Source: Candidatus Iainarchaeum sp. (lineage in GTDB: Archaea > Iainarchaeota > Iainarchaeia > Iainarchaeales > CSSED10-239). From it: a DNA stretch of 32,000 nt. Under the pieces are notes generated by a model that did not search any database, was not told the origin of the DNA, and was given only the letters and a program-made list of their open reading frames with translations. The stretch covers positions 22,166-54,165 of the forward strand of contig JAQVTI010000005.1 of the NCBI GenBank assembly GCA_028700115.1. The letters are read 5' to 3'. Shown piece by piece: positions 4,401 to 31,350 of this stretch (positions within the stretch are counted from its first letter, which is position 1; each line of letters opens with the position of its first letter). The translations under genes were made by a program, and so were the position numbers.

Positions 4401-7400
4401 TTATTTTATTCTAATTTCATATCCATAAGTAAAAATATTTTTATCAATTAAATCTATAAAATCAGAATAATCAAAATTAATTATAAAAAATCTATCATTA
4501 ACTTTTTCATATTCTAATTTTTTAATAAACTTATTATTAATATATAATGTAGGTATAAAAATTAGATTTTTCTGAGGATTATATACCCCAAATATATTAA
4601 AAGGCCCATCATTTTCATTATACAAAACATATCCAGAAACTTCATCAAAGTATATAGAATATTTTTTCCATTGATCAGCTCTATTTCTTATATAATTACT
4701 TAGAGGATATTTATCAATCCAATAATGTTTTTCTAAAATAAAGGAATAATTTTTATTATCTTCTAAATTTGGATTTAATCTAATTTGATTTAAGATATCT
4801 TCATAAAGCCAGAAATTTCTATAATTATTATTTTCAGGTTCTTTATAAGGATATATCTTGTTATAAGGATATGAGCTAGTAAATTTAATTTTACTAAAAT
4901 TATATGAATAATTTAAGATAACATCCTTACCTCTATCATTTTCAAAATAAATATAATTAATATTAGTTTGTTCACCATCTTTATTTAATAAATTTCTAGT
5001 AAATATAGTTCCAATTTTTGGAAAATACATAATTTTTAAATCACTAATATCTACAGAACTTCTAAATATTTTTTTACTTAATAAATTATTTTTTTCTAAA
5101 GGATCTAAAAACACATAAAATCCTTCATCATCTGAATAATATGCATACAAACCATATTCTAATATATTATCTTTAGAAACACTAATTAAATTTGATTGAT
5201 TTATATTTGAATTAAGAGGTCTAAAAGAAATACTAGGATCTCCAAGTAAAAAAATAGACTCTAACCCATTTTGTTTATTTTCTTCAGAATTAATATATGC
5301 ATTTTGTGTAAGTCTTAAAAGATTTGATAATTTATTATTATAAATATTTATAGGAAACATATCATAATTAATATGAAGTGAATTATAACTTGCAAGATAA
5401 TTAGATGCACCTCTATCTAAAAACTCTCTTCCTAAATAAACTCCAGTTAGACAACTTTGTGCAAAGATAACAGGTCTATTTTCTAGATATGAATCAATAT
5501 AATCTATTGTAAATAAATCTTTTGTAACTCCAAAAGAATCAGTAATTGCAAATAAATTTGGCCCTCCATGAGATATAAAATAAATTTGATCCATATTATA
5601 AAAATCACTAACTAATTCATCCTTTGAAGGTGAAACTTTAAAAGGATAATAAGATTTTTCTAAAAAGTTTTCACTTTCTGCAATACTGTTTTTAAATAAT
5701 GGAATTTCATCAAATATTTCTGTATTAAATGTATGCACATTATTTAATTTATAATCACCTAAATCTAATTTAAAATCAAAACCAATAGAGTGTAATTTAT
5801 TAATAAATCTATCAACATTAATAATATAAGATTCTGAATCAGGATATAGAATGTGTGTGTATTTTTTTAATAATTCATTTTTATCTTTATATCTTCCATA
5901 ATCAAAATCTAAATTTTTATAATAATATTTTAAATAATCATTAATTTCTTCAAAAGTTAATCTTCCAACATTTAATTCAACATCTTTATCATCATCAACA
6001 TTTCCATAATAAAGATTATCTAAAACAAAAGGAAAATCTGTTAATGATTTAAAATTATTATAAATTTCCATATGAACATCACTTGCTAAATTACCAAACA
6101 AAACATCTGTTTTTACTGGAATTGCATCATAATCTCCTAAAAGTAATAAATAATCAAAAGCTTCTGTAATATGTTCTAACTTTACATTTGTTTTAATTTC
6201 TTTAATTGCTTTAGAATAATCAATATCTGCATATGAATTTTCAAAATTATCAACAATATTATAATCTAAATCTAATTTAGGTAATTTAACTTCTTCAAAA
6301 TTAAAATAATAAGTTCTTTCTTTATCTTTAAATGAATAAACATTTTCTTTTAAAATTGCATAATATGAATCTCCTCTTTTTTCTACAGAATCCACATATG
6401 CAGTTACATTTAATCCATCTCTACTATAAGAGTTATCTAAATTATGAATATTTACATTAAAATGAATCTCTTTATTATATTTTTTTAAATCATTTAAAAC
6501 AGATAAATCTGTCATTTTACGTTTAAAATTATATTTTTCAACATCATTTAAACTTGTAAGATCTAAATCTTCAAAATAAATATCTGAAATTGTAATAAAA
6601 TTAAAATCATTTGAAGTTAAATAGTTTACATTCTCATCAATAAAGCTACCTTCAATTAATTTTGCATGATTTAAAATATAATCATTAAAGTCTTCAGGAG
6701 TAAGATAATTATAATTAAATACATAGTTTAAATTATCTAAACCATCTATTTTAAAATTATACATATTATTTGCATAATTGTAAGAAATATCCCCAGATTT
6801 ATTCTCATTTGGAATTGCACTAAAATTAATTTCCCCAGAATCTTTAAAAATTAATTTTCTTATTTCAGTCCAGTCGTCTTTATCAAAATCATAATAATAA
6901 TCATCAAAATATTCTGTTTTTCCATAACTTTCTCTTATAGGAAAACCAACCTCTAAACCATCATAAGTACACCCATATGTTTTCATAAAAGCTCCAAATC
7001 TATCTACATATAAACCAGTAAATGGAACTTTAAAACACATATAAGGTTTACCAAAAATAAAATTAACTACATTCTCATTAGATGCTTCGATTTTTTTATT
7101 TTCACTAATTGGCAAATTATTATTTTGTGAAATTAAAAAATCATTATACCATATTTTATTTTTAATATCAAAAACAATTTGATCATCTTTATTTAATGCA
7201 GCTCCTAAATTCACATCCACAATATTTTTATAATCTATAACAGAAGAACTTGAATTATAATCAAATAAAGAAACAAAAGGTGTTTCTAAATAAATATCTC
7301 CACCTATAAATAAATTTTTAAAATCATAACCATTTTGTAAATCAAAATCAAAATAATTATATACATTATAAAAATTATTTAATTTATCACAATAATTATA

Positions 7401-9911
7401 GACATTAGGATTACAATTAAAAGTTATAAAATCATAAGAATCACTACTTGCTTTTCTTGAAAACAATAAATCCATTCCAGAACCAACTTTAAAAGACACA
7501 TCATCATCTAATAATTTACTTCCAAGATTAACTTTTTCATTAATTGATTTTTCTTCAAAAAACAAATTATATTGATCAGTATTTACAACTAATGTATTAT
7601 ATTTTATTTCAGGATCATAATTTACAGAAACATTTAAATCTAGTAATTTCTTATTAGCTTTATTTTCAAATATATTACGATCATAATTATAAATTATAGA
7701 ATTATTATTAAAATTTAAAGTAACATTATTAGAAATTGGATCTAATGATCTTACATAAAAATCTATATTTCCATTTGATACTTTATTAAAAACAGAAGTT
7801 TCAAAACTATCTGAAAATTCTTTTTCTGGAAAAGTATTTCTTTGGAAAATAGTATATTTTTTCAAAATAGCATCATGATAAACAACATAATTATCTGTAA
7901 AATAAAATCTAGATTCATCTCCACCTAATCCTTCAAATATATAATTATCAAAAACATAATTTCTAGAAACTTTCTTAAATTCACTCTCACCAATCTTCTT
8001 ATTAAAATTAATTGTAAAATTATGTTTTTCTAATACATTTTGAGAAACATAATATTTATTAAAAACATCATAATAATAAACTGTTTTTACTCCATTTGAA
8101 TTTTCAGAAATACAACTTAAAACAACATACTCATCAGAATCAATTTGTTCTTGAGGAGTAGCATTAGTTTTATCTACAAAAGGATCTTGTTTAATATTAC
8201 AAGGAATATTATTTTCTAAAACATGTTTTTTAGAAGATAAATCTAAAAAAGAAATTTCAAAATTTACAAAATTTTCATTAAACCCATTAAATTTAATTAC
8301 AAAATTATCATAATAAAATAAATAATATCTACTATAAATTTCATAATCATTTATTTCTTTTGAAAACTTCTTATAAAAATCAGAAACTTTAATAGTCCTT
8401 CCTTGAAGTCCAGCTTTATTTACTGATGGTTCTGGATAGTTAACTTTATTATAAGATTCAGATTCATCTACATTTATAAATTCACTAAAAAAGAAATTAT
8501 AAGTATGTGCATTTTTAACAAAATGATTCATATAAGTTTCTTTAGATTCAACAAATGAAAAATCACAAATATAAAGTCCAGTATGCTCATTATCTTCTAT
8601 ACATCTATCATATGTATCTAATTTTTCAAAATATCTAAATTTAGCATAATTTTCAATAGGAACTTCTCTCCAACCTTTTTCTTGAGAAATAAGCTCTCCT
8701 AAATCATTTATCCCTGCAAAATTATCTTCTTTATAAAAATCTAAATCTTCATGTGTTTCTAAATATTTTTCTTCAGTTTGGTCTTTAGGATAAACAACAG
8801 CTCCATCTTTTAAAATATTAATATGCAAAGATTCTAAAGAATTATATATATTATTTAAATTAAATTTCAAAGTTGATTCTTTTTCAAAAGTATAATCTGA
8901 TTTTATATAAGCAATTGCTCTATTTAAATATGCTCTAGGAATAAGATATCTTTTCTCAAGCATACTTTGTAAAGTTTCTTGAGAAAAATGTTTTCCTAAT
9001 TCATCTGGTGTTCTTTTAATTAATGCAATCTTATTTTCTAAAGGATATTTTTCATAATATTTAATAACTTCTTTTTCTTCTAAAGTCAAAGAATCATAAT
9101 TAAAATTATAATTTAGAACAAAAACAGGTAATTTTTCAAATATCTCATAAGATTTAACAGGTTTTGTTCTATCTTCTAAAAAGGTCTCTTTTTTAGAACT
9201 TTTTAAATAAGGATTAATTGAAGGATTATATCTTCCAGATTCATAATAATAATTTTTTTCTAATAAAGATGAAGAGTAAGGATCTAATATTCTTTTTGAA
9301 CTTATTTCATTTTCTTTTTCTTCAGAATAAATATTTGGATAATAAATATAATTAATTGGAGAAGAAGGAGTTAAATTTAAATTTATAAAATCAAAATCAG
9401 AAAAAACCTTTTCAATAACATCAGATGTCTCAAATTCTAATTTTAAATCTTTAACAAGTTCTAGTTCTTTTTTATAATTGTCATAATTATAATTTAGATT
9501 ATCAGAAGTATATTCAAAATCAGGATATTTAGAGTCTTGATTTCTACAAGAATCACAAGATGGACTTGTAAGTAAATATCTAAAAGTTAATTTCTCAACA
9601 TTATTATCTTCAGAATCTATTTGATGAGGAGAATAAAAGGTAATAGGTGAGAAAAAATAATTATCAAATCTATTAGTCATTTGAGTTTCATCTAAAAAAT
9701 ATTTTGTATTTCCTGAAAATTCACTTGCATCTTTTGGAAAATTTAGATTTGAAATATCACTAGAAAAACCAAATATATCTTTAAAAGTATCAACTAAACT
9801 AAACTCAGAAGACATAGATATATTTGTATCAATTGCAAACATTAACAGAAACAATCCTAAAATAAAAACAATTAATATTAAAATATTAAAAATATTCTTT
9901 TTAAATAACAT
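4401..9911 (-). CDS. Giant (1836 aa) secreted or anchored surface protein with a C-terminal-proximal gingipain-like (C25) cysteine peptidase domain
   Basis: A 5.5-kb ORF stays open in DNA of about 25% G+C. The N-terminus is a hydrophobic signal or anchor (MLFKKNIFNILILIVFILGLFLLMFAI). The first roughly 1230 residues are N/D/Y/F/S-rich with no motif I recognise. The C25-like motifs are listed in the next feature. The stop is TAA. Confidence 0.95.
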   Translation of the reverse strand: MLFKKNIFNILILIVFILGLFLLMFAIDTNISMSSEFSLVDTFKDIFGFSSDISNLNFPKDASEFSGNTKYFLDETQMTNRFDNYFFSPITFYSPHQIDSEDNNVEKLTFRYLLTSPSCDSCRNQDSKYPDFEYTSDNLNYNYDNYKKELELVKDLKLEFETSDVIEKVFSDFDFINLNLTPSSPINYIYYPNIYSEEKENEISSKRILDPYSSSLLEKNYYYESGRYNPSINPYLKSSKKETFLEDRTKPVKSYEIFEKLPVFVLNYNFNYDSLTLEEKEVIKYYEKYPLENKIALIKRTPDELGKHFSQETLQSMLEKRYLIPRAYLNRAIAYIKSDYTFEKESTLKFNLNNIYNSLESLHINILKDGAVVYPKDQTEEKYLETHEDLDFYKEDNFAGINDLGELISQEKGWREVPIENYAKFRYFEKLDTYDRCIEDNEHTGLYICDFSFVESKETYMNHFVKNAHTYNFFFSEFINVDESESYNKVNYPEPSVNKAGLQGRTIKVSDFYKKFSKEINDYEIYSRYYLFYYDNFVIKFNGFNENFVNFEISFLDLSSKKHVLENNIPCNIKQDPFVDKTNATPQEQIDSDEYVVLSCISENSNGVKTVYYYDVFNKYYVSQNVLEKHNFTINFNKKIGESEFKKVSRNYVFDNYIFEGLGGDESRFYFTDNYVVYHDAILKKYTIFQRNTFPEKEFSDSFETSVFNKVSNGNIDFYVRSLDPISNNVTLNFNNNSIIYNYDRNIFENKANKKLLDLNVSVNYDPEIKYNTLVVNTDQYNLFFEEKSINEKVNLGSKLLDDDVSFKVGSGMDLLFSRKASSDSYDFITFNCNPNVYNYCDKLNNFYNVYNYFDFDLQNGYDFKNLFIGGDIYLETPFVSLFDYNSSSSVIDYKNIVDVNLGAALNKDDQIVFDIKNKIWYNDFLISQNNNLPISENKKIEASNENVVNFIFGKPYMCFKVPFTGLYVDRFGAFMKTYGCTYDGLEVGFPIRESYGKTEYFDDYYYDFDKDDWTEIRKLIFKDSGEINFSAIPNENKSGDISYNYANNMYNFKIDGLDNLNYVFNYNYLTPEDFNDYILNHAKLIEGSFIDENVNYLTSNDFNFITISDIYFEDLDLTSLNDVEKYNFKRKMTDLSVLNDLKKYNKEIHFNVNIHNLDNSYSRDGLNVTAYVDSVEKRGDSYYAILKENVYSFKDKERTYYFNFEEVKLPKLDLDYNIVDNFENSYADIDYSKAIKEIKTNVKLEHITEAFDYLLLLGDYDAIPVKTDVLFGNLASDVHMEIYNNFKSLTDFPFVLDNLYYGNVDDDKDVELNVGRLTFEEINDYLKYYYKNLDFDYGRYKDKNELLKKYTHILYPDSESYIINVDRFINKLHSIGFDFKLDLGDYKLNNVHTFNTEIFDEIPLFKNSIAESENFLEKSYYPFKVSPSKDELVSDFYNMDQIYFISHGGPNLFAITDSFGVTKDLFTIDYIDSYLENRPVIFAQSCLTGVYLGREFLDRGASNYLASYNSLHINYDMFPINIYNNKLSNLLRLTQNAYINSEENKQNGLESIFLLGDPSISFRPLNSNINQSNLISVSKDNILEYGLYAYYSDDEGFYVFLDPLEKNNLLSKKIFRSSVDISDLKIMYFPKIGTIFTRNLLNKDGEQTNINYIYFENDRGKDVILNYSYNFSKIKFTSSYPYNKIYPYKEPENNNYRNFWLYEDILNQIRLNPNLEDNKNYSFILEKHYWIDKYPLSNYIRNRADQWKKYSIYFDEVSGYVLYNENDGPFNIFGVYNPQKNLIFIPTLYINNKFIKKLEYEKVNDRFFIINFDYSDFIDLIDKNIFTYGYEIRIK
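5232..6224 (-). other. Peptidase C25 (gingipain-like, clan CD) domain, residues ~1230-1560 of the 1836-aa protein
   Basis: Family-typical motifs occur in the expected order. They are YLLLLGDYDAIPV (Y1254), DNLYYGNVDDDKDVELNVGRLTFEE (GRL at 1316-1318), YFISHGGPN (His1448, nt 5568-5570), VIFAQSCLTG (Cys1487, nt 5451-5453), RGASNYLASY and FLLGDPS (1555-1561). The His-then-Cys order and the 39-residue spacing fit the clan CD caspase-like fold. Confidence 0.65.
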
Positions 9912-9998: not shown

Positions 9999-10349
9999 TT
10001 ATTTTTTTCTTGAAAGAGTAGAAGTTCCCCATATAAATGTAGATATTAATCCAAATCCTAAAAACAAATATAACATAGTAATACTTGCTGTAAGATAAAG
10101 ATATTTATAAACTAAAAAATAAGCTAAAACACCTGTCAAAATATATGCTAAAATTCCTTTACCAATTGAATTTACAATAGTTTCATATATAAAAAATACA
10201 ATAATACCCATCATTAAATACTTTACTACTGGAAAAGCAACCATTGCTCCAGGAATAATTAAAACTCCAATTATAATTACAATTATAATTTTGAAAATCA
10301 TAGGAATTGGACCTAAAAAAGATAACATTTTTCCTTTTTCAGAAAACAT
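9999..10349 (-). CDS. Small polytopic membrane protein (116 aa, about 4 hydrophobic spans)
   Basis: The product is almost entirely hydrophobic segments: IFKIIIVIIIGVLIIPGAMVAF, MMGIIVFFIYETIV, ILAYILTGVLAYFLVY and MLYLFLGFGLISTFIWG. Its ATG lies 1 nt after the upstream gene's TAA, and a strong AGGAGGG sits 7 nt upstream. I found no recognisable family. Confidence 0.75.
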   Translation of the reverse strand: MFSEKGKMLSFLGPIPMIFKIIIVIIIGVLIIPGAMVAFPVVKYLMMGIIVFFIYETIVNSIGKGILAYILTGVLAYFLVYKYLYLTASITMLYLFLGFGLISTFIWGTSTLSRKK

Positions 10350-10350
10350 T

Positions 10351-10722
10351 TTAAGGCCCTCCTGGTCTTTTTATCATATTTGATACTTTTCTTTGTCTCA
10401 TAGAATTTTCTAAACCTCCAGGAGACCCAGGAGTATTACTTTTTTTATTAAGCATCTCTTCTGGAGAACCACCAGCACTAACAAAAAAGAAGTCAATAAA
10501 TATTCCTGCAATTCCAATTGTTAAGAGAACATAAAAAATATACCCAACTCTAAAAATTGGCCAAAAAAAGAACAAAGTTACAAAAAGAGTAATAATTATA
10601 AAAAATATAGACATTTTTTTATTTTCAACCTTTCTTTTAAAAAAAGAAACAATTGCAAGGATAAAAAAAATTTTGATAATTAAATCCATATCTCCTAAAA
10701 ACCCTAAAAACAATAAATCCAT
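10351..10722 (-). CDS. Small membrane protein (123 aa, about 3 hydrophobic spans, G/P/S/K/R-rich tail)
   Basis: Hydrophobic segments are IIKIFFILAIVSFF, MSIFFIIITLFVTLFFFWPIF and GYIFYVLLTIGIAGIFIDFFFV. They are followed by the hydrophilic tail SAGGSPEEMLNKKSNTPGSPGGLENSMRQRKVSNMIKRPGGP. An alternative start exists at 10689. The gene is tightly coupled to the 116-aa gene. Confidence 0.7.
   Translation of the reverse strand: MDLLFLGFLGDMDLIIKIFFILAIVSFFKRKVENKKMSIFFIIITLFVTLFFFWPIFRVGYIFYVLLTIGIAGIFIDFFFVSAGGSPEEMLNKKSNTPGSPGGLENSMRQRKVSNMIKRPGGP
10357..10363 (-). promoter_or_regulatory. Shine-Dalgarno site (AGGAGGG) for the 116-aa gene, embedded in the end of the 123-aa gene
   Basis: The minus strand reads AGGAGGG CCTTAAA ATG. 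This is the strongest match in the window to the anti-SD complement AGGAGGTGATC. The upstream stop TAA (10351-10353) lies between the SD and the ATG, which is the classic layout for translational coupling. Confidence 0.7.
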
Positions 10723-19788: not shown

Positions 19789-20766
19789 TTAATTATACAA
19801 TCTAAACCCAAATCCTAAAGGTATATTATAAACATTTTGATCCATATCTTCTAATTTAAAGCTTGAAGAATATCCAAATAAATTATTATAAGAACCATTT
19901 GAAACTTTATAAAGATCAGAAAAATTAATTGGATTCATATAAATTACAAATTGATTATTACTAGAATTTATTCTTTTAAATAAATAAGAATAATAATTTG
20001 AAGTATAATCATTATATATCTTATAATCATAAACATCTAAAACTTTTAAAGGATTATAAAATGAATCATAAAAATTTCCAAAAACAACAGGAGATTGTCT
20101 TAAAATATAACTACTATTTCCAACAGGGGGATTATTATGATTTGGAACATAACAATCTTCATAACAATTTAAAGAAGTTTCTACAGGTGTTGATTCAGCA
20201 TCACAAGTTCCATTTCCACAGGTATAAAAAATATAATTTGGAATTTTACACATCACAGAAGCTTCATTTAAACAAGAATTGTCTAATGGACAATTTCTAT
20301 AAACATAATAATTTATACAATTTATATTACTATTATTGTTATTAGAACAATCTGCAGAACAAGTCTCATTTTCTCCAAACTCATCTTGACAAGATTCATC
20401 CCCACAATAAAATTCACAATCTAAACAATTTAAATCACAAGAAGTTTCACAATTCTCAAAACAACCTGTCTGTTCTAAGCAAGTTTCTTTTGCAGAATCA
20501 CAAGTATCTATACAAATTTGATCTTCTCTACAATCGAAAACACATTTATCATATGCATCAAAATTAGTAATATCTAAAAAACAATTTTGAAAATCTTCAT
20601 TTTCTAAACAATCATTTTCACAAGACTCATTACAAAAATCTATACAATCTTCTCTATAATTATTATTTGTATAATCACTACAATCAGCTAAAACAAAAGG
20701 CATAAATACAGATATAAAAACAAAAACCAAAACAATTTTTCTTAAATCCATATATTTTTCACACAT
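19789..20766 (-). CDS. Small secreted Cys-rich protein (325 aa)
   Basis: The signal peptide is (MCEKY)MDLRKIVLVFVFISVFMPFVLA; a second ATG at 20749-20751 is an equally plausible start. By my count about 28 Cys fall between residues 29 and 205, spaced 2-10 residues apart. This region includes two CG[DN]x[ST]C..C..DC units. The C-terminal ~120 residues are Cys-free and N/Y/S-rich. The stop is TAA. Confidence 0.9.
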   Translation of the reverse strand: MCEKYMDLRKIVLVFVFISVFMPFVLADCSDYTNNNYREDCIDFCNESCENDCLENEDFQNCFLDITNFDAYDKCVFDCREDQICIDTCDSAKETCLEQTGCFENCETSCDLNCLDCEFYCGDESCQDEFGENETCSADCSNNNNSNINCINYYVYRNCPLDNSCLNEASVMCKIPNYIFYTCGNGTCDAESTPVETSLNCYEDCYVPNHNNPPVGNSSYILRQSPVVFGNFYDSFYNPLKVLDVYDYKIYNDYTSNYYSYLFKRINSSNNQFVIYMNPINFSDLYKVSNGSYNNLFGYSSSFKLEDMDQNVYNIPLGFGFRLYN

Positions 20767-23800: not shown

Positions 23801-26800
23801 AATATTTTTATTATACAATTTAGCATTATAAACTCTATCATCATCTAAGACTTCTAAGAAAGGATTCTCCATCCATAATTGATCTTTAACATTTACTCTT
23901 AAATTTTTTGTAACTCTAGAAAGCACTCTATCATTTTGATTCATAGCTTCAATCAAAACATTAATAATATACGCTCCAGGAACTTCTGGTTTATAAATAT
24001 CTACAATCTTTTCTTGGTCTCCAACAGAAAACACAATCTCATTATTTTGATTTCCTGAAAGATTACCATACTCTAAATCTTGACAAGAAAAATGGTTTGC
24101 TTTATCATCACAAAATGTAAGTCTAAACTTACCATTATTAGAACATTTATTTCTAATAGTAACTTCTTGAGAAGAACCAATAATTGTCTCACTATCAATT
24201 ACAAACATACCGTTTTGATTAATTGTTTTACCATCTTGTTCAAACTCAAAACATTCATTTATATTTACAATTGAAAACTCAGAATCTAAAAATTGTTCAG
24301 TATCTCCATTATTAACATATTCTAAACCATCTTCTGTTTCTACTTGTCCATTAATATAAAGATCTGTTTTTATATCTCCAAACTTTAAAACTCCAGAATT
24401 AAATGTAATTGTAACCATATAATCTGTTTCTGGTTCAATTGTATCATATGCTTTTTTATAAATTCCTTCTGAAAGTCTAGTTGTTTGTCCATTCAAACTT
24501 ACATCATAATATCCAGTCTTGTCTTCTGTATTTACAATCTTAAATTTTAAATTTCTTAAACTTAAAAATGTATCTGGATTATCATAAGACTTACAATTAT
24601 TCTGAACAATAAAACTTATAGTTTGAGCTTTAGAACCATCAATTACTCCTTCCCAAACTTTTTCATGTCCAGATGTAGTTAAACAATTATCTTGTAAAAC
24701 TCCATTTCCTACAGAAATTATAACTTCAATAGGCACAGAAAAAATATACTCACTACTTTCAATTGAAGTAGTTCCTGTTAAAACACCTGAAAGATATTTA
24801 GTTTCAAATAAACTAACAGCATCTAAAGAAGGTGAAATCTTTACTTCTAAAGTTCTACTTGAGTTTGCAGGAATTACAAAACCTTCAGAGATTTGTGTAT
24901 TTAAAAACTCTAAAGTCTTTTCAACAGCAAGATAATTTGATTCTTCAAAATAAATTCCTTCTGTTTCAAACTCATTTAAAGTCATATCAAACTCAGTTAA
25001 GTTCTCAATTGTAATTTCTTTAATAGTCCCATTTACTTCATTTTTATTAATATTAATTTCTAAAGGAGCATCATCTGTAATTTCTACAGAACCATCTAAA
25101 ATATTTAAAACATCTTGATTTGCAGAAACTTCAATTCTTTCTGCAAAATAAGTTGCTTTTGTAGCTTCAATTATTAGTTTTTCTCCAATCTCTAAAGGTG
25201 CAAGAGAAACTAAAACTTCTCCTAAGTCATTTGTTTTTTTATCTAAAACAACAGGATATTCATATCCATTTACTTTATAATAAATATTTACAGTAACATC
25301 TGAAAGGAAAGTGTTTTCTTCTTGATCTTTAATTGTGATTAAAAGATCAAATGGTTTATTAGGAACAATATTTACAGGAGAATAATTTACTTGCATATTG
25401 TGTAAATTTCCAACTAAAAGATTAAGTCCTAATGAATAAATTTCTTGTTGATCATTAATAATTTGATGATACAGTCTAGATTGTCCAAGATATAATGGAG
25501 AAAGTGTATTTTTGAAAAATGTTTCAGAATATGAAGGTATACTTTCAGTTAAAATTTCGTCTTCATTAAAAGGTATCTTAAAACTTTCTTCTCCAGCAGT
25601 TAAATAACCAGTATCATTAAACGCACCTGAAATTTCATAATTTTTAATATTTACAACTTCAAGTGGGTTATTATATAAATCAGAATTAAAAATTAATAAT
25701 CTAGATTCATCAAAATCATCAGAAGATGAATTTGTTAAATAATATTCTAATAAATAATCAGAATTAATTTGCATAGGCACATCTAGATTAGAACTTATAT
25801 CAGATCTAATATCTTTTAAAACATCAACATATTGTCCTTTAAAACAAAAGCTAGAACTACAAAGTTCTTCTGCATCTATGTAATATTGATAATATTCATA
25901 TAATGAATTATTTGTATAATCTTCAAAATTATCAGAATATGAATTAAAATAAACAGGAACAACTTCATTAATTGCAGCATCATGTGTTCTAATAGGCACA
26001 GTTAATTCATAAACTCCAGGAGAAATATTATCCCATAAGATATCAATTAGTTTTGCATGCATATCTGAAGATATAATTTCTGTAAAAGGATATTCTTTAA
26101 AATATTTAGTTACACCTAATGTGTTTGTAATTGGATTTATAAAAACAATATCATCATCAGAAGAATTTTTACTTCCAATCTTAAAAACAAATCCCATTTT
26201 TTCTGAAGCTATTGGATTTGTTAATCTATATTTAAAATAAAATATTTTATTATTTTCTAAAGCATCAACTTCTTGACTAGTAGAATCATAAACTCCTAAA
26301 TAATCAACTAAAGGTGTGCTTCCAGTATATTCACTAGATAAAATAATATCTTTTGTAATAACTGTATCATTTTCCACTCTAATTACTTCTGTAAAATATG
26401 GCATATAACCTTCTTTTGAAACCTTAACATAAACTCTTTTATCTGCTTTTAAAGTCTTTGAATAAGTTCCGTTTTGTGTAGAATAATCAGTACCTAATAA
26501 ATCACCTGTATCTAAATAAAAATCAAGTGTAGCATCTGAAACAGAATCTCCTAGACTATCAAAAATATTTAATCTTAAAGTTCCTTCTCCAATAAACACA
26601 GAAACTAAAGCATTACTATCTTCTGGAGGAGTATGTGTAAACTCTTCAGAAACTCCTTCTAGATAAAGTTGTTTTAGTTTAATAAAATAATCTCCTTCTG
26701 GAATATTTTCAAAACTAACTTCTCCATTTGAATCTGTTGTTAAAAAATCAAATCTAGAATCAATATAACCAGTTTGAGAATCATAGATTAAAACTTTAGA

Positions 26801-28144
26801 AAAAGCAACAGGAATTTCTTCTTCATCTAAAGCCTTTACATTTATATTAGAAACATTACTTACAGTAACTTCTTCTAATTTAATAATATAATTATTAGAA
26901 TCATTAACTTCCACAATTTCAGGGATGTAATTTAATGCAGAACCTCTAATTGAATAATCTTTTCCTTCTTCAATTAAAAAAGTAAAATCAGTTGGATCTG
27001 TTTTAACCTGAACAGATTCATTTCCATCTAAAATTAATTTTATTTGAGGTTCATAAACTAAATCATCTATAATTTCTAAAGTTTCTTTATCTTTTAAAGT
27101 AACTTCAATTAATCTAGTTGAAACTACTTGGTTAGTATCAGGATCAACTAAACTATTTGGATCTTGTGAATCCATTAAATATAAATTTGCTTTTGTTAAA
27201 TTATCTTTTTCAATTACAATGTCTTTTGAAGAAGAAAGATATCTATTTACAGAATCACTAGTAACTATTCTATAACTTCCGGTAGGTAAGTTATTAAACT
27301 CAGAAACCCCCCAAACTGTGTCTTTAACTTTAAATGGATTTAATAAATCGTCTGAAGAATAAACTGAAACTGTAATTCCATCAATAAATTGAGATTGACT
27401 TCCATTTTTTATAGTAGTAACTTTTAAAGATCCAGTATCCACATACAAATAAATATAATCTAATTTTACAACAGATTGATTTTCAGGAATAATAATTCCT
27501 TCAGTTACATAATTTTCTCCTTTAACACTAGCAATAATAGAACCACAATTAGAAGGAACATCAAAAGTATATTTTCCATTATCTACAACTAAGTTTGTAG
27601 GAGATATTTTATCTCCATTTTCACATCTTAAAGTAACATTTAATGCTTCTAAGATTAATGAAGTTGTAGAAGAGTCTACAAAAGACAATGTTTTATTAAA
27701 TGAAGTAGGAACATCTAAAGTTTCTAAAATAACTTTAAACTCAGAAAGATTAGGATCTACATCTTTTTCAAAAAGTTTATATCCCTTACTTTTAATTACA
27801 ACCTGATACATTTTTTTTGTGTCTAATGAAATAATTTTCTTTCCAGATGAATCAGAAACATAAGTTATCTCTTCACCTGTATTTATGTTTTTTATATCAA
27901 AAGAAAAGTTAGTTAAAAGCAAACCAGTATCATCTGCTAGTTTAAATGTAACATCATTATAAACCGGAACAGGATTTAAGATATATGGTTTAAATATAAA
28001 AAATAATATTACTAAAATTATTAAAATAAATATCCAAAAAGAAACTAATTTATTTTTTTTATCTAACTTAGAAGTTATTTTTTTTATAGGTATTCTTTGA
28101 TCTACTTTATCTAAAAAATCTTGCCATTTATCTCCAAAAGACAT
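20801..28144 (-). CDS. Giant (2447 aa) type-II-anchored surface protein: short N-terminus, one TM, Ig-like domain array, shared C-terminal module
   Basis: This is a 7.3-kb open ORF. A GGTGAT SD (28150-28155) lies 5 nt upstream of the ATG. The TM spans about residues 34-51 (VSFWIFILIILVILFFIF). At least six CarboxypepD_reg/PEGA-like units occupy residues ~60-600, e.g. NINVKALDEEEIPVAFSKVLIYDSQTGYIDSRFDFLTTDSNGEVSFENIPEGDYFIKL. The stop is TGA. Confidence 0.95.
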   Translation of the reverse strand: MSFGDKWQDFLDKVDQRIPIKKITSKLDKKNKLVSFWIFILIILVILFFIFKPYILNPVPVYNDVTFKLADDTGLLLTNFSFDIKNINTGEEITYVSDSSGKKIISLDTKKMYQVVIKSKGYKLFEKDVDPNLSEFKVILETLDVPTSFNKTLSFVDSSTTSLILEALNVTLRCENGDKISPTNLVVDNGKYTFDVPSNCGSIIASVKGENYVTEGIIIPENQSVVKLDYIYLYVDTGSLKVTTIKNGSQSQFIDGITVSVYSSDDLLNPFKVKDTVWGVSEFNNLPTGSYRIVTSDSVNRYLSSSKDIVIEKDNLTKANLYLMDSQDPNSLVDPDTNQVVSTRLIEVTLKDKETLEIIDDLVYEPQIKLILDGNESVQVKTDPTDFTFLIEEGKDYSIRGSALNYIPEIVEVNDSNNYIIKLEEVTVSNVSNINVKALDEEEIPVAFSKVLIYDSQTGYIDSRFDFLTTDSNGEVSFENIPEGDYFIKLKQLYLEGVSEEFTHTPPEDSNALVSVFIGEGTLRLNIFDSLGDSVSDATLDFYLDTGDLLGTDYSTQNGTYSKTLKADKRVYVKVSKEGYMPYFTEVIRVENDTVITKDIILSSEYTGSTPLVDYLGVYDSTSQEVDALENNKIFYFKYRLTNPIASEKMGFVFKIGSKNSSDDDIVFINPITNTLGVTKYFKEYPFTEIISSDMHAKLIDILWDNISPGVYELTVPIRTHDAAINEVVPVYFNSYSDNFEDYTNNSLYEYYQYYIDAEELCSSSFCFKGQYVDVLKDIRSDISSNLDVPMQINSDYLLEYYLTNSSSDDFDESRLLIFNSDLYNNPLEVVNIKNYEISGAFNDTGYLTAGEESFKIPFNEDEILTESIPSYSETFFKNTLSPLYLGQSRLYHQIINDQQEIYSLGLNLLVGNLHNMQVNYSPVNIVPNKPFDLLITIKDQEENTFLSDVTVNIYYKVNGYEYPVVLDKKTNDLGEVLVSLAPLEIGEKLIIEATKATYFAERIEVSANQDVLNILDGSVEITDDAPLEININKNEVNGTIKEITIENLTEFDMTLNEFETEGIYFEESNYLAVEKTLEFLNTQISEGFVIPANSSRTLEVKISPSLDAVSLFETKYLSGVLTGTTSIESSEYIFSVPIEVIISVGNGVLQDNCLTTSGHEKVWEGVIDGSKAQTISFIVQNNCKSYDNPDTFLSLRNLKFKIVNTEDKTGYYDVSLNGQTTRLSEGIYKKAYDTIEPETDYMVTITFNSGVLKFGDIKTDLYINGQVETEDGLEYVNNGDTEQFLDSEFSIVNINECFEFEQDGKTINQNGMFVIDSETIIGSSQEVTIRNKCSNNGKFRLTFCDDKANHFSCQDLEYGNLSGNQNNEIVFSVGDQEKIVDIYKPEVPGAYIINVLIEAMNQNDRVLSRVTKNLRVNVKDQLWMENPFLEVLDDDRVYNAKLYNKNIVKTPWDYAEQKVEGHDGFSKFMSDDFENNDGTIYTKAKFSDNGNLENGFPIGGSSGYDEFFAKLHNNLGGVGYYLSGIFPLAELIYNTIASDSKHYAWDYSLDVGNILNEDESTKIQVIETQDVEPMYLDVFDITGARHFNYLSQKVEAFGNLAKDEDIINSLDACSLKNSNFELYEDDLYNGLYGKILATSTNCSPLEITNNNSRYDFKTTCTGSAVFRQKLDLEYISIATCKENQTVWPEQSGIKPIEFVLTSSFLDTFNNSSTQNIFKEYNIYPTYNDTVDIVDPAFDGSSKIGKFRFEFHKLNVNEQPNVDLELTSCYTDTDKQGYTGEGIVPNVSLDWSWQDTEINRCSETYCDGAQLSIEIINRLKLIKDFLESQDGISCPLSEEQILASALDGSYGYSAEPSIIENEINYNSVGIKRGIFAFDNENNFNIKTYIKNRTLETKQGSLDFSFGSNLPDHVYVYSYSSSVPQEIEVSSNGIYDLQIDADDTLIVTMVYDNSNLFEQEDMSLEINYSGESVDPINNNFNSIVDLFIYDSASSSQSCLVPSTTKVINNIDFIDYWFNADMYPEQVMTNGGFGLTQEDIDYLKSLISFEAYLITDNYNQFLKDDFDLAYCGQASFEDGLSCGPYSLGASVVSDYTNGILSNVYRDNLEFTLKHSYQDEVSINTPGKYRVRIDLDFDNEFWNFEQDSQVDLNSVVTFDYVPVSSENNSVFYRLPFDGFLGYTENGYNRQGYGLSYFGDEILISQENEEPILTSNDTSSNAFGVLNVLKENDFFKINSNVNSRGNLLNIEYDSDQTQLVFSPSNATPVLMSVGINRLETFTIFYKLLDVTDSVLGDVVYGNSNLFRWSGVGDGCDFSGDYIYSTFNNTFDDMSLPEDGINNAYKISWTQTPSKIGKIYLRTIVYTPLNRIFEIKDKSGNSADVTFNVYDLPEGVIEIESLKQLFSYILENKVCVTNSEDGLKSEFWWNPSEVYGQDNVFTQNYPDSLQCS
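20804..22912 (-). other. Shared C-terminal module, copy in the 2447-aa protein (residues ~1745-2447)
   Basis: The module carries FRFEFHKLNVNEQPNVDLELTSC, PNVSLDWSW, YCDGAQLSIEIINRLKLIKDF, FEAYLITDNYNQFLKDDFDLAY, PGKYRVRIDLDFDN, SVFYRLPFDGFLGY..RQGYG, RGNLLNIEYDS, VFSPSNATPVLMSV, WSGVGDGCDFSG, IYLRTIVYTPL and NKVCVTNS..LQCS. Confidence 0.8.
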
Positions 28145-28191: not shown

Positions 28192-28199
28192 TTTAAATA
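28192..28199 (-). promoter_or_regulatory. TATA-box-like element upstream of the 2447-aa gene
   Basis: The quasi-symmetric string tttaaata/tatttaaa lies about 48-55 nt upstream of the 28144 ATG. It sits between the terminator-like structure of the 1025-aa gene and the GGTGAT SD. The same 10-mer, ttttaaatat, recurs at 3781-3790 upstream of hisS. Support is weak because the background is so AT-rich. Confidence 0.25.
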
Positions 28200-28221
28200 T
28201 ATGTTTTTTAGAAATAATAAA

Positions 28222-28274
28222 TAAAAAAATAAAAGAAAAAGAAAAAAGATTTTATTTTTTAAAAAATAAAATCT
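28222..28274 (-). terminator. Palindrome plus U-tract, candidate terminator of the 1025-aa gene
   Basis: A perfect 28-bp palindrome (28247-28260 agattttatttttt / 28261-28274 aaaaaataaaatct) overlaps the TAG stop. On the minus strand it is followed by TTTTTCTTTTTCTTTTATTTTTTT. The trailing 16-mer TTTTTCTTTTTCTTTT is identical to the one after the HU hairpin. Confidence 0.45.
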
Positions 28275-31200
28275 AATCTATAATACATCCACCGTTTTGT
28301 TTAATCCAAGAATTCATATTTTCAGTATCTAAACTTCCAAAATATTCTTCATAAACAAACTTAGGATTATAATAAACATTCATACTTGTAGATGAATAGT
28401 TTACACATGCTTTTTTATCAGCAATCATATCATAGATATCTTTAATTGTTTGAATATCATTACTATAGATATTTTCTAAATCAACAATTGTTCCATCTCC
28501 TGAGTTTGTATAAAACATTAAATCATCAGAATATGAATCTGCAACTAATTGACTTGTACCATTTCCTAAAGGTGAGTTACTTGGTGTATAAAGAATAGTC
28601 TTTAAGAAAACACTACCATTCTTTCTAATAATCTCATCTTCTGGCCATTCAACACCATATGTAAAGTTTTGAGATGGTGTATATGGAGCAAGTTCAGATT
28701 GAGTAGCTAAAATATCTGCTCTATCAATAAATATTTCTTGAACTGAAATTCCAGTAAAATCTTTACATTCTCCAATTCCTGTCCATTTTGTTAAATAACT
28801 TCCAGGACTTGCAGCTTCTCCTCCTTGGTCTTCAGGAGCTCCAACACTTAGTTTATAAAAAGCATAAGCATCATTGTTTGTGTTTGTAACTTTCATAACA
28901 ACAGGTGTTGCTCTAGAAGGAGCAAATCTTACTTCAGGAGCAGAATGTGAAGAGTTTGTTTGAACAGAAAGGATTTGTCCTCTTGTTTGGTTATTATTTA
29001 ATTTTGAAAAATCCCCTGGTCTATTTCCAATCTCAGTAAAACTAACTGTGTTTACTGTGTTTGAAGCAGTAAAAGGTTCTGATCTAATAACAGTTGCCTG
29101 ACCATCATTATAAACCTCTAAAACATCTCCAATGTAATCAATTCCATAACCTTGTCTTGCATTTTCAGAAAGCACACCAACTAAACCATCAAATGGCATA
29201 TAATAGATAGGTGCATCTTTTTCAGGAGGCATTTCCTTAGATAAAACAATTTCCACATCTCCTACAATGTTTCCAAAATCATCAAAAATTCTCCATTGAT
29301 CATCAAATGTAACATCAACTAAAACTTCATATCTTCCAGGACCAGGTAAAACTAATTTTCCAGATTCTGAATCAAATGAGCTAGTGTATGCAAATTTATC
29401 ATGATCTAATAAAAGTTTATATAAACCTTCTTCTGTAGTATCATCGTAATAATACTGTGGATATGCCATAAAGGTCATTCTATAATATTCATCAAAATCT
29501 TCTAAAAAATCATTTGAATATCCATCAAGCATTAAAAGTGATCTAAAGTTAACTAATTTATCATAATCAAAATTATTTAATTCTCTAGCAAAATCTTTTA
29601 TATTTTCAGAAGTATGTTCTAGAGAACATTCAACTCCTTCTGTTGAAAATATATTTTCTAAGAAATTATCTAAAGATCTAGGTTCATTATATTCTGAGTT
29701 TAAATCAGAAGTAAAATTACTTAAAGATGCAGTTACAGTTAACTTTTCAGGATCTGCAAAGTAACCTGCATTTAAAGAAACTTCTCCACTTATATTTTCT
29801 AAAGAAAGTTCTTCTCTTGAAAGTTCAACTTCAACAGAATCTAAAATTACACTATTTGAATTTTCTAAACTTAAAGTCAAAGTAGCACTAGAATCACTTG
29901 AAGGATTAATTCCAGAAAAATCATAATAAGATTCTAAAGTATATTCTACATTTACTAAACTTAATGAATCATATTCTGAGTTTAGAGAAGTTATTCCAAC
30001 ATTATCTGTTTGAACTTCTAAATCTTGAGTTACACCTGGCATAGGACAAGTAAACTCAGAACTGTTTTGTAAAACATATTCTTCAAGTTGATGTAATTTA
30101 TTTAAAATTTCAATATTAAATTGAGTAGCATCACAATACATTCCAGTGTCTGTAATAGAATCATTTCCTGATGATCCACTTGTAATTGATTTAGAATCAA
30201 CATCACACCATGTATCTTTTGTAAGTTCTTGACCATTTATTGCAATTGTATTACCAGTATCAAAGTCCCAATCAAATGAAACTCTTGGTAAAGATTCTTC
30301 TCCTGTTGTTCCAAGAATAATACCACCATCTACACAATCTAGTTCTTCTAATTCTAAAGTTGAATCTTCATCAACTGTCCAAGAATTAAAGACTAAATGG
30401 AATGCTTGTTTTTCTTCTTTAACTTCAGCCATATCTTGTAGTTCTTTTGCTAAAGTTTTTCCATCTAAAATTTTATCAAGTCTTAAAGCACTTGTAACTG
30501 AATAAAATGGCATAAAATATAAATTTGCCCATCCTAAATCATCTTTTATCATATCAAATTTTAAATTAATATAAATTTCTTCTTCATCAAATAAAAGTTT
30601 AGGATATTTTGTAACTAAAAATCTATACTCATAATCATTTCCAACAGTTTTGTTTGGATCTTCAAAAAGAATTCCTCTTTTTTGAGCAGAAGTTACATTA
30701 TTATTTAAATCATATGTAGTATATTCTTCTGTTGTTTCTTCTAATCTAAATGTAGGCGAATTAGATCTATCTAATGAAGGTAAATCAACAGTTTGAATAA
30801 ACTCAGTATCTAAAATATTTTTATCAGTAATTGTCATTGTCTCATAAGGCAAAGTATCTGTTTCATATGTATTATAATTTGGATCATTTGGAGACATTAT
30901 TCTTTGTAAATAAAAATCTGCAGCATAATTTGAATAATCAGGATAATCTATATAATCAGATTTATCATTTGAAATATTAACTAAATCTTTTGTTAAAACA
31001 AATTCAAATTTAGTATCTTTTACATTTTGATATGTTTTAAATCCAGAAACTGCTCCAGCTAAAACACCATGTATAATAGGAGAAGGACCTACTATTTTTT
31101 CAACTAAATCTATTGCAACATTAGTTAAATTTCCTAAAAGATAACCAGAATTATTTCCTCCTGTTAGAAAATTTCCTAAATTTCCTGCTAAAGCATTATT

Positions 31201-31350
31201 ATTTTGTGAATTATTATATTGATTAGTACTATTTTGTGTGTTTGTTTGTTGTCCATCACCATCTGCAGCAAAAATATTTGCAGAAAAAACACACATAAGC
31301 ATAAGTCCAACTAATAAAACACTTAAAATCTTCATATTCATTTTTTTCAT
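28273..31350 (-). CDS. Secreted 1025-aa protein: cleavable signal peptide, Q/N-rich N-terminal region, shared C-terminal module
   Basis: The Sec-type signal is MKKMNMKILSVLLVGLMLMCVFSANIFA, followed by ADGDG. A GGTG SD (31359-31362) lies 8 nt upstream of the ATG. Residues ~315-1025 are colinear with the C-termini of the 2447-aa and 2155-aa proteins. The stop is TAG. Confidence 0.95.
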   Translation of the reverse strand: MKKMNMKILSVLLVGLMLMCVFSANIFAADGDGQQTNTQNSTNQYNNSQNNNALAGNLGNFLTGGNNSGYLLGNLTNVAIDLVEKIVGPSPIIHGVLAGAVSGFKTYQNVKDTKFEFVLTKDLVNISNDKSDYIDYPDYSNYAADFYLQRIMSPNDPNYNTYETDTLPYETMTITDKNILDTEFIQTVDLPSLDRSNSPTFRLEETTEEYTTYDLNNNVTSAQKRGILFEDPNKTVGNDYEYRFLVTKYPKLLFDEEEIYINLKFDMIKDDLGWANLYFMPFYSVTSALRLDKILDGKTLAKELQDMAEVKEEKQAFHLVFNSWTVDEDSTLELEELDCVDGGIILGTTGEESLPRVSFDWDFDTGNTIAINGQELTKDTWCDVDSKSITSGSSGNDSITDTGMYCDATQFNIEILNKLHQLEEYVLQNSSEFTCPMPGVTQDLEVQTDNVGITSLNSEYDSLSLVNVEYTLESYYDFSGINPSSDSSATLTLSLENSNSVILDSVEVELSREELSLENISGEVSLNAGYFADPEKLTVTASLSNFTSDLNSEYNEPRSLDNFLENIFSTEGVECSLEHTSENIKDFARELNNFDYDKLVNFRSLLMLDGYSNDFLEDFDEYYRMTFMAYPQYYYDDTTEEGLYKLLLDHDKFAYTSSFDSESGKLVLPGPGRYEVLVDVTFDDQWRIFDDFGNIVGDVEIVLSKEMPPEKDAPIYYMPFDGLVGVLSENARQGYGIDYIGDVLEVYNDGQATVIRSEPFTASNTVNTVSFTEIGNRPGDFSKLNNNQTRGQILSVQTNSSHSAPEVRFAPSRATPVVMKVTNTNNDAYAFYKLSVGAPEDQGGEAASPGSYLTKWTGIGECKDFTGISVQEIFIDRADILATQSELAPYTPSQNFTYGVEWPEDEIIRKNGSVFLKTILYTPSNSPLGNGTSQLVADSYSDDLMFYTNSGDGTIVDLENIYSNDIQTIKDIYDMIADKKACVNYSSTSMNVYYNPKFVYEEYFGSLDTENMNSWIKQNGGCIID
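28276..30408 (-). other. Shared C-terminal module, copy in the 1025-aa protein (residues ~315-1025)
   Basis: The module carries AFHLVFNSWTVDEDSTLELEELDC, PRVSFDWDF, YCDATQFNIEILNKLHQLEEY, FRSLLMLDGYSNDFLEDFDEYY, PGRYEVLVDVTFDD, PIYYMPFDGLVGV..RQGYG (YYMPFDG at nt 29185-29205), RGQILSVQTNS, RFAPSRATPVVMKV, WTGIGECKDFTG, VFLKTILYTPS and KKACVNYS..GGCIID. Confidence 0.8.

Follow-up and report, generated by a model that had tools for sequence, protein, structure and literature searches.

Giant membrane-anchored proteins in a conserved gene cluster of Iainarchaeota: a candidate apparatus of the cell-contact surface

The gene block and its reading frames

A 32,000-nucleotide stretch of DNA from Candidatus Iainarchaeum sp. 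(contig JAQVTI010000005.1 of assembly GCA_028700115.1; hereafter the window, in whose own numbering all coordinates are given) holds a block of eight consecutive genes, several of them exceptionally large, whose products are predicted to be exported or membrane-anchored, as a first-pass annotation made by a model from the letters alone had proposed. All eight lie on the minus strand, at 28273-31350, 20801-28144, 19789-20766, 17289-19775, 10799-17266, 10351-10722, 9999-10349 and 4401-9911; an open reading frame (ORF) finder returned exactly these coordinates, which are those of the earlier annotation, together with its summed length of 8,855 amino acids (aa) and its estimate that the block (4401-31350) fills 84% of the window. 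Each ORF begins with ATG and has no internal stop. In the order given, the genes are here called C, D, E, F, G, H, I and X, where C to I follow a gene order seen in related genomes, in which two further giants, A and B, precede them. The cluster to which they belong is real and conserved and, in outline, is expected as one of the clusters of giant surface proteins carried by symbionts with small genomes; its most likely role is to build the contact surface of the cell.

Base composition is uniformly AT-rich (21-28% G+C), and stops make up 9-17% of codons in the other two frames of the block genes, so that frames of 828-2447 codons are not open by chance. Measured against a relative at 81-94% aa identity (ENA ERZ18242344 NODE_499, loci L001 and L005 of the set of related loci compared here), the ratio of nonsynonymous to synonymous substitution rates (dN/dS) is 0.06-0.35 across the block genes, similar to the 0.11-0.22 obtained in the same comparison for the neighbouring genes for HU and the histidyl- and alanyl-tRNA synthetases (HisRS, AlaRS). 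Values so like those of housekeeping neighbours indicate that all eight are functional genes under purifying selection, and bear out the earlier judgement that the large ORFs are genuine. The intergenic gaps are 34 nt (D/E), 13 nt (E/F), 22 nt (F/G) and 1 nt (H/I), and these, with the AGGAGGG ribosome-binding site at the last, had been reported correctly. As the minus strand carries all 11 genes of the window, co-direction by itself is not special.

A hydropathy scan found one strongly hydrophobic segment in each large product, none near a C-terminus, and at least three such segments in each of the small proteins H and I. The claim that every large product starts with a hydrophobic segment and lacks a hydrophobic tail holds in general; the exception is G, where the segment lies at residues 203-228 and not at the start. 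The supposed richness in N-x-S/T sequons did not survive comparison with composition-matched shuffles: sequons occur at the level expected from composition, with a mild excess in the 2155-aa protein G (+2.5 standard deviations) and a depletion in the 1836-aa protein X, and a glycosylation signal was accordingly set aside. Scans of the window for tRNA and Rfam RNA genes found none; a terminator scan stood at chance level and a sigma-70 promoter scan gave 152 sites against 152.5 in shuffles, both of them uninformative for an AT-rich archaeon.

Limits of the cluster in related genomes

Comparison with relatives redraws the limits of the block. The order A-B-C-D-E-F-G-H-I, followed by HU, HisRS and AlaRS, is conserved in loci L001/L005, L002, L003, L004, L008 and L010, with product lengths in relatives of about 2350 aa (A, position 1), about 1700-1850 aa (B, position 2), about 1000 aa (C, position 3), about 2450 aa (D, position 4), 120-325 aa (E, position 5), 666-828 aa (F, position 6), about 2130 aa (G, position 7), about 123 aa (H, position 8) and about 116 aa (I, position 9). 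Seven of the eight block genes, C through I, keep this order in at least six related genomes, which answers the check on gene-order conservation named in the first-pass annotation. The block as originally delimited is nonetheless only partly a unit: C to I belong together, the 1836-aa gene X falls outside, and the cluster continues upstream of the window by two giants, the rest of B plus A, of which a complete copy (2357 aa) was recovered in L012. The window block is the downstream two-thirds of an operon-like cluster of Iainarchaeota (Diapherotrites), within which gaps measure 6-142 nt, the largest standing before D in the window and in L002.

The start of that upstream extension is visible at the window's edge, where a ninth giant on the minus strand (31394..32000) remains open to the window end and runs off it. 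Its C-terminal 201 aa comprise twelve copies of GDNTT and a small C-terminal domain of about 90 aa, and match the B-family C-terminus of L003 (39% identity, E 8e-16), which identifies the partial gene as the B orthologue. The C-terminal tips of this family vary, from a cadherin-like match in L002 and low-complexity sequence in L011 to the small domain in the window and L003. At the nucleotide level the GDNTT run is a near-perfect 15-nt tandem repeat (31830-32000; 11.4 copies, 98% matches), and the 77.7-kb contig of the close relative stops within the same B-family gene; the repeat probably breaks assemblies, and its copy number may be variable.

When species-representative genomes were scanned with a profile of the 2155-aa family, four loci were found, including CP045477.1 and a 671-kb Ca. 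Iainarchaeum contig; the best genome matches were Ca. Forterrea multitransposorum (CP045477.1, '25_41', about 25% G+C) and Ca. Iainarchaeum, which places the window in a DPANN archaeon of the Iainarchaeota (Diapherotrites) near Forterrea. The Forterrea locus (L010, CP045477.1 259140-285511) encodes D (at least 2248 aa in the stretch examined), E (120 aa), F (809 aa), G (2147 aa), H (123 aa) and I (125 aa), with HU, HisRS and AlaRS next in line; the G match is at 34% identity over residues 7-2130, which is the full length. More distant giants, 21-22% identical to those of the window (21% in L013/L014), occur in L013 and L014 (31% G+C) and in L015, an uncultured archaeon of 53% G+C. Content is less constant at this range: E and F are absent in L013, L014 and L015, L015 has only two giants, those of L013 are dispersed, and L016 lacks B and C. 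What stays constant in evolution is a core of one or more giants together with H and I, with C, E and F as accessories of the Iainarchaeota version. From the sequences we infer that the clustered genes would form one co-assembling apparatus.

The membrane-anchored giants

Profile-profile comparison reveals a collinear N-terminal region of about 1300 aa common to A, B, D and G, at probabilities of 94-100%, and blastp and hhalign upheld the earlier proposal that the 2447- and 2155-aa proteins are paralogous. On this sequence evidence the four (D and G within the window) are old paralogues, predicted to be type II signal-anchor proteins.

D (20801..28144, minus strand, 2447 aa) is the clearest representative, a predicted type II (N-in, C-out) membrane-anchored giant built, in order, of an N-terminal cytoplasmic motif, one transmembrane (TM) helix, a beta-sandwich region of about 1300 aa, a non-repetitive middle and a C-terminal module, referred to here as the head module. 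Its anchor (27980..28144, minus strand) consists of the cytoplasmic motif MSFGDKWQDFLDKVDQRIPIKKITSKLDKK followed by the TM helix LVSFWIFILIILVILFFIF, and conforms to a family-wide N-terminal consensus of about 35 aa, …YYxxEDKYYxxLDxxDxxIPxYKIxDPIDKxxPSF, directly after which the TM helix begins. Within the beta-sandwich region, residues 436-510 (26615..26839, minus strand) match CarboxypepD_reg, a transthyretin-like beta-sandwich (PF13620, E 4e-11, 43.6 bits against a cut-off of 32.3). Orthologues of D measure 2426-2514 aa at 36-94% identity (36-45% for the full-length homologues), and conservation is even along the protein, at 26-56% per 100-aa block.

In G (10799..17266, minus strand, 2155 aa) a Lys-rich cytoplasmic extension of about 175-200 aa (130-200 residues in the G family) comes first and shifts the hydrophobic helix to residues 203-228. 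After the extension come the anchor motif and TM helix known from D, then a beta-sandwich region and a head module that has diverged. The anchor motif and helix together span residues 178-228 (16583..16735, minus strand), and blastp aligns G 178-407 to D 3-226. CarboxypepD_reg recurs at residues 418-506 (15749..16015, minus strand; PF13620, E 1.5e-9, 38.5 bits). Orthologues of 2113-2147 aa are present in L002, L003, L005, L008 and L010.

These features extend well beyond the immediate relatives. Among 89 family representatives of at least 2000 aa, the juxtamembrane motif xD[KRSQ]xxP[ST][FL] lies within the first 120 residues in 57, the first TM helix stands at a median position of residue 35, and none of the 89 has a TM helix within its last 100 residues. 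Whole-protein Pfam and NCBIfam scans of the window proteins returned CarboxypepD_reg only; scans of 45 overlapping 360-aa pieces added further beta-sandwich families for the giants, so that those of the window match CarboxypepD_reg, SpaA, SdrD_B and Y_Y_Y, all transthyretin- or Ig-like beta-sandwiches. Across 18 diverse members the families found were solely beta-sandwiches of adhesin type: CarboxypepD_reg (17/18), bMG3 (13), Big_1 (10), SpaA (10), SdrD_B (8) and MG4 (5). A phmmer search of PDB sequences with the 2447-aa protein gave no match. Internal repeats were sought in the giants and none found, and ortholog lengths are nearly fixed between genera (2426-2514, 2113-2155 and, for C, 964-1025 aa); in these respects and in their even conservation the giants depart from adhesin stalks built of repeats, and the pattern suggests a fixed plan with a particular place for every domain.

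Known export or assembly machinery is not among the matches. The first-pass annotation had seen no ATPase, secretin, pilin, sorting signal or other known machinery, and none appears in the Pfam and NCBIfam scans, whole or piecewise. Sorting signals of the sortase (LPXTG) or archaeosortase (PGF-CTERM) kind are likewise missing, there being no C-terminal hydrophobic segment in the window proteins or in the last 100 aa of the 89 representatives. The ATPase, PilC/FlaJ and pilin families of type IV pili and archaella were detected neither in the window nor in the 10-kb flanks in relatives, and the N-termini of the block products are unlike class III signals. RTX, ABC transporter and membrane-fusion Pfam families were found in neither the window nor the related loci.

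The C-terminal head module

C, D and G share a C-terminal module of 400-700 aa (profile-profile probabilities 97-100%). C itself (28273..31350, minus strand, 1025 aa) consists mostly of this module behind a cleavable-looking signal peptide (…SANIFA/ADG), and hhalign confirms that it is, as had been suggested, a secreted paralogue of the C-terminal part of the giants; its orthologues, of 964-1023 aa, occupy the same position in L001-L004. The module covers residues 317-1002 of C (28345..30402, minus strand), aligned by hhalign to D at 100% and to G at 97.7%, and residues 1747-2432 of D (20849..22906, minus strand), where it carries an invariant YCDxxQ and the terminal motif KVCVTNS…FWWNP. In G a diverged version occupies residues 1754-2123 (10898..12007, minus strand; hhalign 97.6-97.7% to C and D) and reads YYCDSVQ. 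The C-terminal half of A shows no detectable relation to the module, only a short terminal motif being similar (33% probability). A C-terminal 'tag' common to all secreted products was considered and rejected: C, D and G alone are related (82-98%), A is weak (33%), and F, E and X are unrelated; the WWNP in the 828-aa protein F is probably coincidence.

A phmmer search with the 1025-aa protein against 1.84 billion representative sequences gave 392 matches at E<=1e-3, of which 170 reached E<=1e-30; nearly all lie within the last 400-700 residues of proteins of 2200-3250 aa. Source names include Ca. Diapherotrites and Ca. Micrarchaeota, a taxonomic spread that rests on a handful of named sequences, the family being counted as clusters at 50% identity. 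[YF]CDxxQ occurs within the last 800 residues of every large member (89/89) and WNP within the last 80 residues of 76 of the 89. Beyond these motifs the module has invariant Asp, Arg, Tyr and Trp residues and four invariant Cys around YCDxxQ, a pattern that suggests two disulfides rather than free Cys. No Pfam, NCBIfam or PDB-sequence match was found for the module, even when a 44-sequence profile was run against PDB sequences. An AlphaFold model of D residues 1300-2447 (1148 aa) is mostly beta with one alpha/beta sub-region, at a mean predicted local distance difference test score (pLDDT) of 60.9. Foldseek searches of this model against PDB and BFVD returned only generic multi-beta-sandwich proteins (MSCRAMM adhesins, pilins, integrins, phage fibres) at TM-scores below 0.1; among the local matches of highest probability are FnBPA, antigen I/II and CFA/I pilin.

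The small membrane proteins H and I

H (10351..10722, minus strand, 123 aa) has three hydrophobic helices and a basic C-terminal tail after FF(V/I)SAGGSxEEM, and I (9999..10349, minus strand, 116 aa), which starts 1 nt after the H gene with AGGAGGG just upstream, is polytopic, with three to four helices. Both are well conserved, and neither matches a Pfam or NCBIfam family. Their profiles cross-match at E values of 1e-4 to 7e-6, and the two are probably ancient paralogues kept adjacent as a pair. Homologues of H adjoin giants in L002, L003, L005, L008 and L010 and also in the distant L013/L014 and L015; the H profile matches in L014 at E 1e-20 and in L015 at 2e-23, and the I profile in L014 at 7e-21, L013 at 2e-20 and L015 at 8e-18. 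The adjacency of giant, H and I thus recurs in genomes of 24%, 31% and 53% G+C, in every lineage examined, and this linkage, reaching into distant archaea, is the strongest evidence from the sequences that the genes may act as one functional unit.

Around the pair in the distant loci stand further proteins. In L013 (11762-13324) and L014 (9068-10842) H and I are followed by three small membrane proteins of 86, 101 and 113 aa, and the surroundings include two coiled-coil proteins and an unannotated 490-aa protein beside PolB; these may be further parts of the same membrane system in that lineage.

The secreted proteins E and F

Apart from the weak cross-match between H and I, the proteins E, F, H, I and X are unrelated to the giants and to each other. 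E (19789..20766, minus strand, 325 aa) is a small secreted protein with a conserved core of about 120 aa and the highest dN/dS of the block (0.35). It had been described as a disulfide-rich small protein, and its 29 Cys are indeed present; most of them, however, lie in a C-x(3-5)-C-rich insertion of about 200 aa that is found only in the window lineage and an 87%-identical relative, the positional homologues in L002-L004, L008, L010 and L016 measuring 120-155 aa.

F (17289..19775, minus strand, 828 aa) is secreted; a Gly/Asn-rich repeat (…LNxxLxAGDGGxGGNG…) occupies its centre, and its C-terminal domain is conserved. It evolves fast, positional homologues of 666-828 aa being 25-31% identical between genera. 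An AlphaFold model from a five-sequence alignment has a mean pLDDT of 46.7, residues 300-580 alone reaching 70-85; the repeat region is modelled with modest confidence as about five beta-hairpin units. The earlier description was of a Gly-rich, solenoid-like protein, and the core is now predicted to be Gly/Asn-rich repeated beta-hairpins. Foldseek gave no PDB match with E<0.1 and phmmer none among PDB sequences, and an exact-sequence look-up found F not on record.

The C25-peptidase protein

X (4401..9911, minus strand, 1836 aa) starts with a signal or anchor segment and lies outside the conserved core. Only two homologues were found, at 100% and 81% identity, and tblastn gave no match in the other loci examined; in L008 (Iainarchaeum) and L010 (Forterrea) HU follows directly after the I gene, at about 200 nt. 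Its dN is the highest of the block, with a dN/dS of 0.28. Judged from these comparisons, X is a lineage-specific insertion and a putative accessory of the window's own lineage.

The first-pass annotation had called X a protease-bearing giant, and a Peptidase_C25 domain (gingipain-like, clan CD) does stand above the Pfam cut-off at about residues 1251-1562 (5226..6161, minus strand; PF01364, E 6.6e-8, 32.6 bits against a cut-off of 23). The match came from a 361-aa piece (residues 1220-1580) and covers profile positions 65-373 of 374. It was missed by the whole-protein Pfam scan and by pieces that cut off the first 10 residues of the domain; composition-biased giants can hide real domains from whole-protein scans, and domain calls depend on where the query is cut. 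The motif series runs YLLLLGDYDAIP … VGRLTF … FISHGG … AQSCLTG … FLLGDPS, and a candidate catalytic dyad, as read from these motifs, is the His of FISHGG with the Cys of AQSCLTG, 39 residues apart. The His-Gly and Gln-Ser-Cys contexts are presumably those typical of the clan CD dyad, as in gingipain. Neither X nor its C25 piece matched any PDB sequence by phmmer.

Comparison with described systems

The view that the gene set matches no described system stands in so far as none of its families has been characterised; it does not stand for the cluster as a whole, since the 42-kb cluster of large membrane-anchored proteins reported in Forterrea multitransposorum (Probst & Banfield 2018, PMC5905446) is the orthologous locus. 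As in that cluster, membrane-anchored proteins of more than 1,800 aa lie in one region of the window (the 2447- and 2155-aa proteins, each with a single TM helix in its N-terminal region, with A and B upstream in relatives), the order D-E-F-G-H-I-HU-HisRS…AlaRS is that of the window, and the context of a host-dependent member of the Diapherotrites is alike. The two differ in that the window lineage adds the 1836-aa C25 gene and the Cys-rich insertion of E, both of which Forterrea lacks. The existence of the cluster and a general guess at its role are therefore not new. The Forterrea paper does not mention paralogy, the motifs, the head module, the small membrane partners or a wider family (PMC5905446), and in the literature on DPANN archaea its sentence on the cluster is the only mention of this family that we found; we likewise found no published account of how the paralogues are organised, of the anchor motif at the N-terminus, of the C-terminal module with its reach over at least 392 families in Iainarchaeota and Micrarchaeota, of the partnership with H and I, or of the C25 add-on.

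The closest organisational analogue, compared by description, is the Giant1-5 array of Apilactobacillus kunkeei, a run of adjacent genes for giant extracellular proteins that fills about 5-6% of its small genome (PMC12863079). Some of these proteins are described as paralogous; they form elongated structures that end in a specialised domain, and an older core has been joined by newer members. The likeness is organisational only: Giant1-5 are bacterial, measure 3000-8000 aa and carry an N-terminal beta-solenoid binding domain, and neither an N-terminal signal-anchor motif of the window type nor partners like H and I are described for them. At the level of domains, the closest relatives are the MSCRAMM- and pilin-type adhesins of Gram-positive bacteria, whose beta-sandwich families (SpaA, SdrD_B, Big_1, CarboxypepD_reg) the stalk regions of the giants also match. 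The domains of the window giants are, however, archaeal, non-repetitive and conserved in position rather than arranged as tandem repeats, and the anchor is an N-terminal TM helix instead of a C-terminal LPXTG/sortase or PGF-CTERM/archaeosortase signal. The anchoring principle differs, in short, from those of both Giant1-5 and the Gram-positive beta-sandwich adhesins.

Other comparisons are more remote. SlaB, which carries SlaA in Sulfolobus, is anchored at its C-terminus, and tetrabrachion embodies a similar stalk concept. With the Sulfolobales SlaA/SlaB pair the window shares the concept only, a long membrane-anchored stalk co-encoded with secreted partners, and with SlaA/SlaB and the SLP_Mh of Micrarchaeota alike the character of surface-exposed, Asn/Ser/Thr-rich archaeal proteins; PF05123 and other archaeal S-layer families are absent from the window products in whole and piecewise scans. 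Gingipain-type C25 proteases resemble X alone, the PF01364 match covering nearly the whole profile, and differ in that the domain of X lies near the C-terminus of an otherwise unannotated archaeal protein that lacks the C-terminal domain of the type IX secretion system. As for RTX giant adhesins, the Gly-rich repeats of the 828-aa protein follow a pattern other than GGxGxDxUx.

Proposed function and rival explanations

We read the block as an anchored surface-fibre or contact apparatus at the cell-cell contact surface, and give this reading a probability of roughly 0.5. The giants would be fibres tens of nanometres in length that reach outward from the membrane and bear the C-terminal module at the distal end; H and I would form a membrane base that recognises the conserved N-terminal motif and serves the insertion, clustering, retention or holding of the giants; and the secreted C, perhaps with E and F, would join the distal assembly. 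The assembly would be a contact surface for attachment to a host or partner supplying nutrients to a metabolically minimal archaeon, and the C25-peptidase protein, as a later lineage-specific addition, would probably cleave proteins on the surface of either the partner or the cell itself. Lipid and nucleotide metabolism, and most of central metabolism, are missing from the Forterrea genome, and its authors inferred that the organism depends on a host (PMC5905446). A more far-reaching proposal is that the giants with H and I constitute an undescribed archaeal surface machine common to Iainarchaeota and Micrarchaeota, with a new principle of anchoring and assembly, in which H and I recognise the N-terminal motif, the giants co-assemble in a heteromeric fibre, and the C-terminal modules with the secreted head-only paralogue form a distal contact organ that is the basis of DPANN-host attachment or bridging; we put this forward tentatively, as less likely than not.

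Several observations weigh against a contact apparatus. Some Diapherotrites have been proposed to be free-living, and host attachment of Iainarchaeota is not established (PMC5905446). E, F, B and C are not found in all relatives (L015, L016), the linkage of giant, H and I alone being universal. Confidence in the structural models is low to moderate (pLDDT 46.7 and 60.9, all TM-scores <0.1), and for the head module, F and the H/I pair no informative structural or sequence match assigns an activity. Finally, the even conservation and near-fixed lengths of the giants fit a structural scaffold better than a fast-evolving host-recognition adhesin.

This last point leads directly to the idea that the giants and their secreted partners make up the cell's own wall, a scaffold of anchored stalks under an outer canopy that would give shape or protection. 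A wall would explain not only full-length conservation and constant ortholog lengths but also the unchanged number of repeats, a dN/dS as low as that of housekeeping genes, the encoding of anchored stalks in one operon with the secreted head-only protein and other secreted proteins, and the fixed genomic position of the cluster among housekeeping genes. Yet the products show neither an S-layer Pfam domain nor a C-terminal anchor, and the S-layer protein demonstrated in Micrarchaeota, a group with giants of the same family, is a different one, a 101-kDa PF05123 protein (10.1101/2021.04.28.441871); four to five different subunits of more than 2000 aa would moreover be unusually costly for a genome of about 0.8 Mb. 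We consider a wall unlikely, though it deserves serious weight. Alternatively, the giants may be no more than a tandem array of independent adhesin-like genes, duplicates left adjacent by history, each with a ligand of its own, with H and I serving an unrelated membrane function. That the giants are paralogues, that the content of the array varies (B and C missing in L016, two giants in L015, dispersed in L013), and that the B-family tips differ between relatives would all follow, and Giant1-5, as described, show that such arrays exist (PMC12863079). Against it, the paralogues have stayed separate orthologous groups in fixed order across genera at 34-45% identity, the non-paralogous E, F, H and I are set between them in constant positions, the gaps being 1-34 nt, and the adjacency of giant, H and I recurs across the full range of base composition given above, so that an array of independent genes seems to us quite unlikely.

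An extracellular degradative or defensive system, with the head module as an enzyme so far unrecognised, or as a protease trap, that feeds or protects the cell and acts with the C25 peptidase, has its attractions too: the MG-like domains (bMG3 in 13/18 and MG4 in 5/18 members) recall alpha-2-macroglobulins, the [YF]CDxxQ invariant in 89/89 members is superficially like the CGEQ thioester, a true C25 peptidase domain is encoded in the neighbourhood, and the head module has invariant Asp, Arg, Tyr and Trp. However, even piecewise scans give the head module no thioester-domain, bait-region or catalytic Pfam or NCBIfam match, the Cys-to-Gln spacing differs from that of CGEQ, the motif sits among four invariant Cys that suggest two disulfides, the model around it is not an alpha/alpha barrel, and the C25 gene is absent except in the closest relatives; such a system is highly improbable. 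The narrower identification of the module as thioester- or alpha-2-macroglobulin-like was rejected outright, given that [YF]CDxxQ is not CGEQ, MG3 and MG4 occur in relatives only, no thioester domain is found and the model holds no alpha/alpha barrel.

Should the contact-apparatus reading hold, it would bear on a central open question, for we know of almost no molecular components of DPANN attachment or exchange outside Nanoarchaeota and Nanohaloarchaeota. The locus offers a testable parts list: a giant family of at least 392 clusters, an N-terminal anchor motif, a C-terminal domain without known relatives, and the H/I pair. The cluster accounts for about 4-5% of a genome (about 0.8 Mb) from which most metabolism has been lost, and this share argues for a function essential to the lifestyle. 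Even if it turns out to be no more than a wall scaffold, or a number of adhesins that act independently, its analysis would still annotate several large 'dark matter' families.

Flanking genes

Downstream of the block, on the same strand, follow HU, HisRS and an AlaRS with an archaeal-type N-terminus. The contig of the relative continues with an archaeal-type ProRS (ProRS-C_1) and an ATP-dependent DNA ligase, and PolB is nearby in relatives. HU (3983-4252, minus strand) is of bacterial type (PF00216, E 2e-29) and has counterparts of 66-69% identity in the corresponding place in Forterrea and Iainarchaeum.

The AlaRS gene (1-2316, minus strand) contains an in-frame TGA at 1888-1890, a codon that in the close relative is AGA and encodes a conserved Arg of …PQTSIRFGDVSNVG…; the stop divides the gene into pieces of 142 aa and at least 629 aa. 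Of the housekeeping genes here, AlaRS has also diverged most (82.8% identity, dN/dS 0.22). The TGA may reflect a mistake in sequencing or assembly, variation within the population, or a genuine nonsense mutation in an essential gene; an alternative genetic code was rejected, as the relative has AGA and no other gene has an in-frame TGA. Between HisRS and AlaRS the window has a 137-nt AT-rich gap with short tandem repeats (2317-2452), where L005 (17424-18670) carries a 128-aa fragment of a histidine-specific methyltransferase (Methyltransf_33) and Forterrea the full 312 aa; the gene appears to be decaying or to have been lost along the window lineage.

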